From positions 1-12,387 of the forward strand of contig JAAYZI010000029.1 of assembly GCA_012514925.1 (NCBI GenBank): DNA of 12,387 nt. Direction: 5' to 3'. Below are positions 10,570 to 12,387 of this stretch, piece by piece (the first letter of the stretch is position 1; each line of letters starts with the position of its first letter). This stretch comes from Deltaproteobacteria bacterium (GTDB lineage: Bacteria > Bdellovibrionota_C > UBA2361 > JAAYZI01). Position numbers and translations under genes: made by a program. The notes under the pieces were generated by a model. It was given only the letters and a program-made list of their open reading frames with translations, was not told where the DNA came from and made no database searches.

Positions 10570-12387
10570 TTAGTTACTATCGAGAAGTTTTAGTACTAAG
10601 GCAGATTGTTGATTCGCTTGCGCTAGGACGGCTGCGCCAGCTTGTTGCAAGATCTGGTTACGAACGAGGTTGGCTGATTCTTTTGCTACATCTACGTCTC
10701 TGATGCGGCCGGTGGCTGCGGCTATGTTCTCAGTAGATGAGGAGAGCACGTTTACCGCCACACTTAGGCGCGACTGAAAGGCACCGATCTGTCCTCGCTG
10801 CGCACCTAGTTGAGATAGCTTTTGCTGGAAGACTGGAAGTGCTTGGCGAGCATCCGCCATGGTGGAGAGAAAGAAAGGAAGGAGGGGGGAGACGCCGTCT
10901 TTAGTAAGTGCTGTAAGGATGGTTGCTTGGCCTTGATCGTTTACACCTCCCGCCGTCACTAGATCCAAAACGCCGTCGCCGTTTACATCCCCAAGGCTAA
11001 AGTCAGATCCTACATCTGTGGCGAAGGTGCGTTTGTCTCCAAAGCTGCTATCCCCATTTCCAATTAGCACACTCGAGTGGGCGCCCCCCGCCGTCACCAG
11101 GTCTAAGACGCCGTCGCCATTTACATCCTCAAGGCTAACGGCGAAGCTCGTGTTTCCCGTTTCCGTGGCGAAGGTACGTTTATCTCCAAAGGTGCCATCC
11201 CCCCTTCCAATCATCACACTAGTCTGACTCTGGCTACTACCCCCGTATTTGGCACTTCCCGCGCTTACCAGATCCAAAACGCCATCGCCGTTTACGTCCC
11301 CAAGGGTAACGGCCCAGCTAACGCCATCCACTTCCGTAGCGAAGGTGCGTTTTTCTCCAAAGGTACCATCCCCTCTTCCAATAAGAACACTCGCCTGCCC
11401 CCGACTGTTGGCATTTCCCGCAGTTACAAGGTCCAAAATACCGTCACCGTTTACATCCCCAAGGGTAACGGCTCTGCTGCTGCCATAACTGCTTCCCGTC
11501 TCCGTGGCGAAGGTGCGTTTATCTCCAAAAGTGCCATCCCCATTTCCAATGAGTATACTCACCTGACCCTGAGAAGATCCGTTGTGGGCATTCCCTGCCG
11601 TCACAAGGTCTAAAACGCCGTCACCATTCACATCCCCAAGGCTAACGGCGTAGCTAATATTGAAATGACCTCCCGTCCCCGTCTCCGTAGCGAAGGTACG
11701 TTTATCTCCAAAGGTGCCATCCCCATTTCCAATTAGTACAATCACCTGGCCCTGATGGTTGGACACTCCCGCGGCCACCAAGTCCAAAATGCCGTCGCCG
11801 TTTACATCCCTAAGAGTCACGGCTTCACATTGACTAGAAGTACCTCCAATATGCATGGTGTAGGTGCGTCTATCTCCAAAGGTGCCGTCACCTCTTCCAA
11901 TTAGCACACTAGCTTGGCCCTGGGTTAGGACAGCTCCCGCAGTCACCATATCTAAAATACCGTCACCGTTTACATCCCCAAGGCTGACGGCCTTGCTCGA
12001 ACCGAATTCCGTCGTACAAAAAGTCCTCTTCTCCCCAAAACTCCCCGTCCCAATCGCACCTCCAACTCCACTTGCCACGCCGCCATCGAGTCCATACCCA
12101 GCTTGTAGTCTTAGCTCTTCTACGCTTCCGTCAAACAAATTTAGGCCGTTAAACTTTACGCTCTTTGATATCCGGAAGTACTCTTTTGAGAGCGCTTGTG
12201 CCTCCGCATCAAGAGACTTCCTCTGCACCGTGCCATACACACCGTTTGCTGATTGCTCTGCCAATTCTTGGAGACGGATCACAATTGAAGTCAAACTATC
12301 AAGCGCACTCTCAGCAAGATTTAAAGCTGAAAGACCATCGTTTAGATTTCTTATCCCCTGCGTGTACACCCTGCGGTCAGCATCTAA
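10570..12387 (-). CDS. Flagellin-family protein (FliC-like; N- and C-terminal flagellin domains) whose central hypervariable region is replaced by 8 FG-GAP/VCBS-type beta-propeller repeats; 5' end lies beyond the window
   Basis: Frame is open to the right edge (..LDADRR before the GTG at 12367-12369). N-terminal part RNLNDGLSALNLAESALDSLTSIVIRLQELAEQSANG...KFNGLNLFDG matches flagellin D0/D1. C-terminus LGAQRGQIGAFQSRLSVAVNVLSSSTENIAAATGRIRDVDVAKESANLVRNQILQQAGAAVLAQANQQSALVLKLL is the canonical flagellin C-terminal domain. Eight repeats of FGDKRTFATETG...AV(S/T)LGDVNGDG(I/V)LDLVTAG...GQxSVLIGxGDGT lie between them. Confidence 0.8.
   Translation of the reverse strand, partial: LDADRRVYTQGIRNLNDGLSALNLAESALDSLTSIVIRLQELAEQSANGVYGTVQRKSLDAEAQALSKEYFRISKSVKFNGLNLFDGSVEELRLQAGYGLDGGVASGVGGAIGTGSFGEKRTFCTTEFGSSKAVSLGDVNGDGILDMVTAGAVLTQGQASVLIGRGDGTFGDRRTYTMHIGGTSSQCEAVTLRDVNGDGILDLVAAGVSNHQGQVIVLIGNGDGTFGDKRTFATETGTGGHFNISYAVSLGDVNGDGVLDLVTAGNAHNGSSQGQVSILIGNGDGTFGDKRTFATETGSSYGSSRAVTLGDVNGDGILDLVTAGNANSRGQASVLIGRGDGTFGEKRTFATEVDGVSWAVTLGDVNGDGVLDLVSAGSAKYGGSSQSQTSVMIGRGDGTFGDKRTFATETGNTSFAVSLEDVNGDGVLDLVTAGGAHSSVLIGNGDSSFGDKRTFATDVGSDFSLGDVNGDGVLDLVTAGGVNDQGQATILTALTKDGVSPLLPFFLSTMADARQALPVFQQKLSQLGAQRGQIGAFQSRLSVAVNVLSSSTENIAAATGRIRDVDVAKESANLVRNQILQQAGAAVLAQANQQSALVLKLLDSN
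10940..12050 (-). repeat. Eight tandem FG-GAP-encoding repeats of about 140-150 nt with high nucleotide identity (e.g. recurring GTCCAAAAYRCCGTCRCCGTTTACATCCCCAAGG)
   Basis: Read directly. Gives the repetitive antisense shadow ORFs 11018-11227 and 11249-11488. Confidence 0.8.

Follow-up and report, generated by a model that had tools for sequence, protein, structure and literature searches.

We analysed the window, a stretch of 12,387 nucleotides (positions 1 to 12,387 of contig JAAYZI010000029.1, assembly GCA_012514925.1) from the metagenome-assembled genome (MAG) of a Deltaproteobacteria bacterium, and found that a partial gene on its minus strand (10570..12387) encodes a flagellin carrying a calcium-loop beta-propeller. 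We assign a probability of about 0.6 to the reading that this is a genuine flagellin, in which the position of the outer domains D2/D3 is taken by a single seven-bladed FG-GAP/VCBS propeller with Ca2+ loops, and that it builds a propeller-clad filament with a variable face. The combination of flagellin and propeller in one protein is practically certain. Judging from the sequence, it is likely that the protein is a real filament subunit, and we put forward tentatively that binding or recognition is the selected function.

The flagellin core and its inserted propeller

The gene appears in the open reading frame (ORF) list and translation as one long minus-strand ORF, which is open at the right edge of the window. 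Its product of 605 residues exactly matches NLF24188.1, an NCBI entry titled 'hypothetical protein GX589_00830, partial' and assigned to a 'Deltaproteobacteria bacterium' MAG. The contig stops at position 12387, within the 5' part of the gene, so that the ORF lacks the D0 helix and about 52 residues at its N-terminus. An exact 30-nt query from the window end gave no match against metagenome contigs. The first-pass annotation had described 10570-12387 as a flagellin with an FG-GAP middle, and Pfam bears this out, since Flagellin_N, FG-GAP, and Flagellin_C all match this single ORF. A foreign base composition was ruled out, as the GC content of the gene (0.536) equals the window average. The features of the gene are as follows.

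10570..12387, minus strand: partial coding sequence of the FG-GAP flagellin, 605 codons plus a TAA stop at 10570-10572 (ORF list and translation)
12064..12387, minus strand: N-terminal D1 segment, residues 1-108 (Pfam Flagellin_N, AlphaFold2 secondary structure, family alignment)
10894..12060, minus strand: seven-bladed FG-GAP/VCBS beta-propeller, residues 110-498, at the canonical D1-to-D2 point
11884..12042, minus strand: repeat 1, residues 116-168; Ca2+ loop DVNGDGILD at 138-146 (window 11950-11976)
11716..11883, minus strand: repeat 2, residues 169-224; Ca2+ loop DVNGDGILD at 194-202 (window 11782-11808)
11533..11715, minus strand: repeat 3, residues 225-285; Ca2+ loop DVNGDGVLD at 252-260 (window 11608-11634)
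11365..11532, minus strand: repeat 4, residues 286-341; Ca2+ loop DVNGDGILD at 311-319 (window 11431-11457)
11194..11364, minus strand: repeat 5, residues 342-398; Ca2+ loop DVNGDGVLD at 364-372 (window 11272-11298)
11047..11193, minus strand: repeat 6, residues 399-447; Ca2+ loop DVNGDGVLD at 421-429 (window 11101-11127)
10900..11046, minus strand: repeat 7, residues 448-496; Ca2+ loop DVNGDGVLD at 467-475 (window 10963-10989); strand C, ATILTAL, returns to D1
10573..10875, minus strand: C-terminal D1 and D0 helices, residues 505-605, with the canonical end ...ILQQAGAAVLAQANQQSALVLKLL (Pfam Flagellin_C, phmmer, AlphaFold2)

The flagellin part is recognised at both ends. Flagellin_N (PF00669) matches residues 5-88 at profile positions 54-137 of 139 (E 8.5e-15, 55.5 bits, cut-off 26.6), and Flagellin_C (PF00700) matches residues 521-602 (E 7.5e-22, 77.9 bits, cut-off 23). 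In a phmmer search, solved flagellar filaments matched the C-terminal region with E-values of 1e-27 to 1e-20 (best 2.4e-27). The NCBIfam flagellin models match the protein at E 1.4e-39 to 1e-30, and the FlgL model TIGR02550 at E 6e-13 over residues 10-88 only; the protein thus appears nearer to flagellin than to FlgL. No NCBIfam flagellin or FlgL model attains its full-length cut-off, which is expected because the protein is truncated and carries a foreign insert. Both flagellin ends had been called well preserved. This holds for the C-terminal region and the N-terminal D1 segment, and the N-terminal D0 helix, together with the spoke, lies outside the contig. Full-length homologues in the family alignment supply it: they open with the canonical MxIxxGSNIxSLxAQRRL...ERLSSGQRINRASDDAAGLAIA and cover Flagellin_N profile positions 2-137. 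Their C-terminal end, ...LAQANQxPxxxLxLL, is also of the flagellin type.

The window protein was modelled with AlphaFold2 using an alignment of 111 family sequences. The model has a mean predicted local distance difference test score (pLDDT) of 94.4 and a predicted template modelling score (pTM) of 0.89, and it is confident over both flagellin-propeller junctions. The N-terminal D1 part comprises helices ND1a (2-47) and ND1b (53-76) and a beta-hairpin (92-106); an all-beta domain (110-498) and a long C-terminal helix (510-604) follow. The monomer model agrees with the proposed propeller on a flagellin core, and the predicted insert is a closed ring of seven blades that enters D1 at the canonical position. 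A full-length relative, P0003, which is 60% identical to the window protein by BLASTP and 64% in the family alignment, was also modelled (pLDDT 88.4) and shows the complete flagellin topology: D0 helix 9-33, ND1 45-129, hairpin, propeller 166-548, CD1, and CD0. The N-terminal D0 helix, whose loss would have spoken against a flagellin, is thus kept in full-length members of the family. In Foldseek searches, the helical part retrieved flagellar filaments (9au6 at E 1e-13), and the propeller retrieved integrin heads, AAL-2, PAL, PVL, ITFG2, CRTAC1, and TcB, with WD40 propellers scoring close behind the integrins. Neither phmmer nor Foldseek found a flagellin with such a propeller among the solved structures.

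Two Pfam profiles match the middle region in seven stretches each, FG-GAP_3 (PF13517, 187 bits, E 7e-56) and FG-GAP (PF01839, 107.5 bits, E 2.5e-31), so that the FG-GAP assignment proposed for this region is upheld by profile hidden Markov models. The region had been estimated at about 370 residues, which is close to the approximately 390 found (residues 110-498). The repeats had been counted as eight and described as near-identical. Pfam, repeat dissection, and DNA-level copies all give seven, and the seven units, 49-61 residues each, share 50-86% pairwise identity as protein (mean 66%). The corresponding DNA copies are spaced by 138-183 nt and are 60-91% identical. The proposal of an intact DxNxDG loop in every blade stands at the motif level: a perfect D-x-N-x-D-G-x-x-D loop of the form DVNGDG[IV]LD lies between strands A and B in 7/7 blades, and these loops are predicted Ca2+ sites with intact motifs.

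In the repeat frame, blade 7 takes its strand D from the N-terminal end of the domain (SFGEKRTF) and its strand C from the C-terminal end (ATILTAL). This 'velcro' closure puts both chain ends side by side; therefore, the propeller can be inserted into a loop of D1. The DA' loops of the seven window blades are CTTEFGSSK, TMHIGGTSSQCE, GGHFNISY, ATETGSSYGSSR, ATEVDGVSW, ATETGNTSF, and ATDVGS. By Pfam and the AlphaFold2 model, the propeller fills the whole middle region, with no peptidase family among the Pfam matches, and no domain other than the flagellin D1 flanks and the propeller, such as thigh or calf, is present.

The propeller flagellin family and the evolution of its blades

A word-indexed search of NCBI, ENA, JGI, and Logan returned more than 100 clusters (90% identity) that combine Flagellin_N, FG-GAP, and Flagellin_C. 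The members have 570-700 residues and are 45-64% identical to the window protein, and many lie inside contigs of up to 895 kb. Among the best 150 matches in a library of 50%-identity representatives, at least about 30 are full-length members; the remainder are giant multi-propeller FG-GAP proteins (1,000-7,400 residues) with propellers 35-50% identical to that of the window protein. The giant bacterial proteins P0121-P0257 contain up to 18 stretches matching the window propeller. The flagellin insert probably came from this pool of giant proteins. A metagenome scan for related loci gave mostly FG-GAP-only proteins and one further full member (L091), and a genome-contig scan with flagellin N-terminal patterns, whose set did not include the source MAG, returned mostly ordinary flagellins. 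Named carriers are Bdellovibrionales/Bdellovibrionota MAGs (L001, L003), a 'bacterium' (L002), 'Deltaproteobacteria' MAGs, and one Pirellulales MAG. The D0/D1 cores share 55-72% identity between genomes within the family, against 36-57% with the plain flagellins found alongside them in a genome. The cores are closer across genomes than to their plain neighbours; therefore, the FG-GAP flagellins are a distinct flagellin clade rather than the product of repeated independent insertions. The family is already in public databases and is essentially unannotated there ('hypothetical protein', 'VCBS repeat-containing protein', 'flagellin').

FG-GAP flagellins occur in sets of at least three per genome or bin. 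Between copies of one genome or bin, the D0/D1 ends are 97-99% identical, while the propellers are only 46-54% identical. The source MAG, with GX589 locus tags, includes the proteins NLF24188.1, NLF26067.1, and NLF24559.1. It holds three copies, all partial at contig edges (P0001, which is the window copy, P0010, and P0013); their D1/D0 segments are 98-99% identical, and the propellers of P0001 and P0010 are 46% identical. The window stops inside the gene probably because the identical ends of the copies break the assembly. The copies of the source MAG may be strain alleles that were binned together. Those of loci L083 and L002 are true paralogues: L083 has three copies in tandem (10001-16450), with ends 97-98% and propellers 54% identical, and L002 has three clustered copies (76-7531). 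The MAG of L002 also holds two tandem plain flagellins of 287 residues (L004).

Conservation across the family alignment is 0.70 in D0/D1 versus 0.56 in the propeller. Inside the propeller, the conserved elements are the Ca loop LGDxNGDGxLDLV, which is the A-B loop and is invariant or nearly so in the family, and the C-D loop GxGDGTFG; the full set of seven Ca loops is kept by 99 of the 111 aligned members. Sequence and length vary in the DA' and BC loops, which are rich in insertions and deletions and are both located on one face of the propeller. In integrins, the DA' and BC loop sets build the ligand-binding face. The ligand face of the PVL/tachylectin lectins is likewise made of these loop sets (PMC8023676).

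Blades at the same position in different members are no closer than blades at different positions (0.67 vs 0.66, 0.56 vs 0.54, and 0.48 vs 0.48), and positional orthology of the blades is absent between family members. Identity is higher between blades of one protein (0.67 in the window protein, up to 0.86 in P0067) than between blades of different proteins. This pattern points to concerted evolution or repeated re-amplification of the blades within each flagellin. Continuous re-amplification or homogenisation has been described for highly repetitive VCBS propellers (PMC9218822), and the pattern observed here matches it, with the difference that the propeller is located inside a flagellin. The family illustrates clearly how the blades of a highly repetitive propeller can keep being homogenised or re-amplified within a host protein.

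Compared with the canonical flagellins (Salmonella FliC with its D2/D3, and those of Pseudomonas, Campylobacter, and Geovibrio), the window protein has the same D0/D1 core and D1 beta-hairpin, and its insert enters at the same point as their outer domains. Conserved ends, a hypervariable middle, and multiple copies per genome are also shared. However, the outer domains of canonical flagellins are immunoglobulin-like, beta-sandwich, or 'skinny' domains, whereas here they are replaced by one closed seven-bladed propeller with Ca2+ loops. With integrin alpha and the bacterial FG-GAP/VCBS propellers, the insert shares the seven-bladed fold, the FG-GAP frame, and a DxDxDG-type loop in the A-B hairpin. 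The window protein carries such a Ca loop in 7/7 blades, against three or four in integrins. Integrin alpha also has a beta-subunit partner, thigh and calf legs, and a membrane anchor, all of which the window protein lacks, and differs in that the window blades are 50-86% identical to one another and sit within a loop of another protein. An identity as an integrin alpha subunit was ruled out, because the propeller is flanked directly by flagellin D1, with no other domains.

The closest solved sequences to the propeller in phmmer were PAL (5mb4, E 2.8e-8) and AAL-2 (4tqj, E 2.4e-7), followed by integrin alphaIIb. The fungal GlcNAc lectins PVL, PAL, and AAL-2 (2bwm, 5mb4, 4tqj) are also seven-bladed and integrin-like with Ca2+ loops (Foldseek TM score 0.52). 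Their PVL-type sugar pocket is formed by a GW/GGW motif in the DA' loop (PMC8023676). In our family, GW was found in 3 of 765 DA' loops across 111 members and, as 'GW', in 0/7 blades of the window protein; a PVL-type lectin mechanism was therefore rejected. In flagellinolysin, a metallopeptidase is inserted in the hypervariable region of a flagellin (PMC5595980). Both follow one idea: the hypervariable region gives way to an entire autonomous functional domain, of which a filament displays thousands. However, flagellinolysin has an HExxH peptidase, whereas the window protein has a non-catalytic scaffold or binding fold, and an enzymatic flagellin was ruled out for it because no peptidase family is among its Pfam matches.

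A full-text search of the literature found no paper on a protein in which FG-GAP or VCBS repeats are part of a flagellin. An AlphaFold survey of flagellin outer domains mentions 'WD40-repeats in cluster #55' in one clause (Fields et al. 2024, PMC11532411), which is silent on FG-GAP identity, Ca2+ loops, copy structure, and distribution. Since WD40 propellers score near integrins for the window model, cluster #55 may be the FG-GAP flagellin family.

A proposed propeller-clad filament and its alternatives

Assembly of the proposed filament may proceed as follows. FliS would keep the subunit export-competent, and the subunit would pass unfolded through the flagellar type III channel and fold at the filament tip. 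Folding of the propeller probably depends on extracellular calcium through the seven EF-hand-like Ca2+ loops, and it would stay unfolded in the low-calcium cytoplasm. Polymerisation would take place via D0/D1, either alone or together with the sister copies and the plain flagellins of the same genome. Both D1 connectors are predicted to leave the propeller on the CD-loop (calcium-loop) side from the outermost strands of blade 7. The variable DA'/BC face lies opposite to these exits; therefore, it cannot pack on the core and should be solvent-exposed. In this way, the filament or a segment of it would become thick, its surface covered by regularly arrayed rigid propellers.

The flagellar filament lattice has 11 protofilaments, an axial repeat of about 52 Å, and a D0/D1 radius of about 60 Å. 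A propeller of about 50 Å x 30 Å would fit either flat or edge-on, giving by a rough estimate a filament of about 19-22 nm. A 793-residue flagellin with four outer domains (9au6) builds filaments, and so do flagellins of more than 1000 residues, with thick filaments in the case of giant flagellins (PMC6248924). The size of the propeller flagellin is therefore no obstacle to filament formation.

The first-pass annotation suggested an adhesive or enzymatically decorated filament; a binding role is plausible, and the protein has no catalytic domain. Of the possible roles, we tentatively favour polyvalent binding or recognition because of the usual role of the fold, the location of the variation, and the combination of near-identical cores with divergent propellers. 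The filament would then offer a polyvalent, exchangeable recognition surface on which different copies present different faces. An integrin-type Ca2+ propeller is a classic ligand-binding scaffold, and about 20,000 copies per filament would give very high avidity. A bolder version, which we consider rather unlikely, sees the filament as a programmable, calcium-dependent recognition organelle: identical cores would make the copies interchangeable, switching or mixing them would alter the adhesion targets, and calcium-gated folding would permit the type III passage, with the large all-beta domain taking shape only outside the cell, in analogy to RTX proteins in type I secretion. If it were true, possible targets include the prey of predatory Bdellovibrionota-like bacteria, or particles and glycans in sludge.

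Several points weigh against the propeller-clad, variable-face filament. The filament is predicted from the genes of an uncultured organism, represented by a MAG. The GW motif of PVL and tachylectin is as rare as given above, and no candidate ligand emerged. The variability of the loops could come from relaxed constraint, or from immune or phage evasion, rather than from diversified binding. The orientation of the propeller in the filament is a prediction made from the topology of its strands. Some of the carriers are Bdellovibrionota. The flagella of cultured Bdellovibrionota are membrane-sheathed, and a sheath would hide the propeller. Among the 13 related loci, fliS is nearby in one, and most copies are orphan genes. 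Finally, the FHIPEP gene of L083 fits SctV better than FlhA (315 vs 285 bits over its N-terminal 211 residues).

The main rival to a binding surface is a purely structural or hydrodynamic outer domain, which we regard as somewhat unlikely. By packing against one another, the propellers would make the filament stiffer, thicker, or more stable, which could help, for instance, a cell that swims in viscous or abrasive media, and the loops would drift, or evade phages or grazers, with no ligand at all. Other flagellin outer domains tune motility in a ligand-free manner by dimerising or forming sheaths (PMC8931119, PMC11532411), the giant flagellins yield thick filaments (PMC6248924), and the pTM of 0.89 suggests a rigid arrangement of propeller and D1. 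The scarcity of GW means that the known binding motif is not conserved. However, sets of at least three copies with near-identical cores and propellers of 46-54% identity are explained more easily by selection for different surfaces, and the variable loops are exactly those that bind ligands in integrins and PVL-type lectins.

It is improbable that the protein is secreted through a flagellar or other type III system without forming a filament and acts as a soluble or cell-surface Ca2+-dependent adhesin. The orphan position of most copies, away from flagellar clusters, and the SctV-like FHIPEP near the L083 array would suit such a protein, and cell-surface 'flagellin homologues' exist (for example, PDB 3k8v). 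However, D0/D1, which is needed only for polymerisation, is the best conserved part of the protein (0.70) and 97-99% identical between copies, and the ends are canonical. At L089, fliS is adjacent (PF02561, E 2.6e-33, 1.1 kb upstream of the family gene). Plain flagellins co-occur with the family, both in the MAG of L002 and at L085, where one of 429 residues lies 8 kb from the family gene.

A FlgL-like hook-filament junction protein, or another minor axial protein with a propeller, is very improbable. JGI labels several members as 'flagellin-like hook-associated protein FlgL', and Flagellin_N and Flagellin_C are common to FlgL, but the flagellin models outscore TIGR02550 by far, the C-terminal end is of the flagellin type, and several tandem copies occur per genome. 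An assembly chimera, in which a flagellin was misjoined to an FG-GAP protein at the contig end where this gene, like the other two source-MAG copies, breaks off, is refuted because over 100 independent clusters drawn from four sources repeat the architecture, often well within long contigs, and also by the uniform GC content and by the unbroken reading frame with a model confident over both junctions.

The outer domains of flagellins are very diverse, and few have an assigned function, flagellinolysin being the one clear case of a complete module. Given this known diversity, the architecture alone will not astonish specialists of the flagellum. The experimental appeal of the protein lies in the Ca2+ propeller, the diversified faces on near-identical cores, and the homogenisation of blades within the protein. 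The copies with identical cores and different propellers are a natural experiment that makes the purpose of an outer domain directly testable. The propeller is also a potential rigid, symmetric, loop-variable display scaffold for filament engineering.

Genomic surroundings

The related loci vary in context and share no conserved gene neighbourhood. Near fliS in L089 (3421-7853, minus strand) are glycosylation-type enzymes, namely a 932-residue methyltransferase/Maf_flag10_N/DUF3880/Glyco_trans_1_2 protein and a GT9 enzyme. From its gene content, this appears to be a typical locus for a filament and flagellin modification, with the modification enzymes being probable. A GT1 enzyme and a PMT-like GT-C membrane protein lie beside the family member of L003 (8921-11947, minus strand). 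Ser, Thr, and Gly make up 44.5% of the variable DA' loops versus 32% of the whole protein; in view of this enrichment, O-glycosylation of the exposed propeller face is conceivable. The L083 FHIPEP gene (1-633, minus strand, 10 kb from the flagellin array) was dropped as evidence for flagellar export, since SctV outscores FlhA; it adjoins the tad-pilus genes T2SSE, T2SSF, and RcpC. Between the flagellin copies of L002, a 527-residue polytopic membrane ORF (3789-5372, plus strand) has zero Pfam matches. In the Pirellulales MAG (L087, 5280-11198), genes for a TrwC relaxase and a TraG/TrwB coupling protein are close to the family copy, and the copy of L090 (12544-21580) lies amid phage-like genes (GP88, AAA_34/Helicase_C_4, DUF772 transposase). 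These mobile-element neighbours hint at a horizontal spread of FG-GAP flagellin genes.

Along the window, the FG-GAP flagellin gene follows a shikimate/aromatic amino acid operon that is complete and a gene for a secreted, collagen-like protein; neither of them has an obvious link to motility. An Rfam scan of the window gave zero matches, and a terminator scan 3' of the flagellin gene gave nothing convincing. The other features are as follows.

10311-10480: intergenic repeats 3' of the flagellin gene, four tandem units of 11-13 nt (ACCTTTTGGAGA[AC])
9482-10213, minus strand: 243-residue collagen-like protein directly downstream, about 30 G-X-Y triplets, Pfam Collagen E 2.3e-15
1622-9227, plus strand: compact aromatic amino acid operon with overlapping start and stop codons
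77-1479, plus strand: 357-residue SPFH/Band 7 protein with a lipoprotein-like N-terminus, after a 110-residue ORF without a family match

A 22-nt direct repeat, AAAAAAGTAGGGGGGCACCTTT, stands on either side of the tandem units in identical copies (at 10361 and 10424). The same intergenic region holds a 19-nt imperfect hairpin (10325-10363) and a perfect 14-nt AT-rich palindrome (10451-10480). The collagen-like protein has a signal-peptide-like N-terminus and a globular C-terminal part of about 90 residues, and no collagen-like gene was seen linked to an FG-GAP flagellin in the other loci.

The first gene of the operon encodes a 690-residue fusion of chorismate mutase, prephenate dehydratase, ACT, and DAHP synthase, the one operon protein covered by the Pfam scan. 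The later genes are read as aroB, aroA, aroK, aroE, aroD, and aroC from position and size only. Proteins with this fusion are common in several phyla; the nearest one shares 73% identity, and named matches come from Deltaproteobacteria, Dadabacteria, Planctomycetes, and Melioribacteraceae. A Band_7/NfeD pair lies near the flagellin array of L083, and its likeness to the Band 7 gene of the window is probably coincidental.

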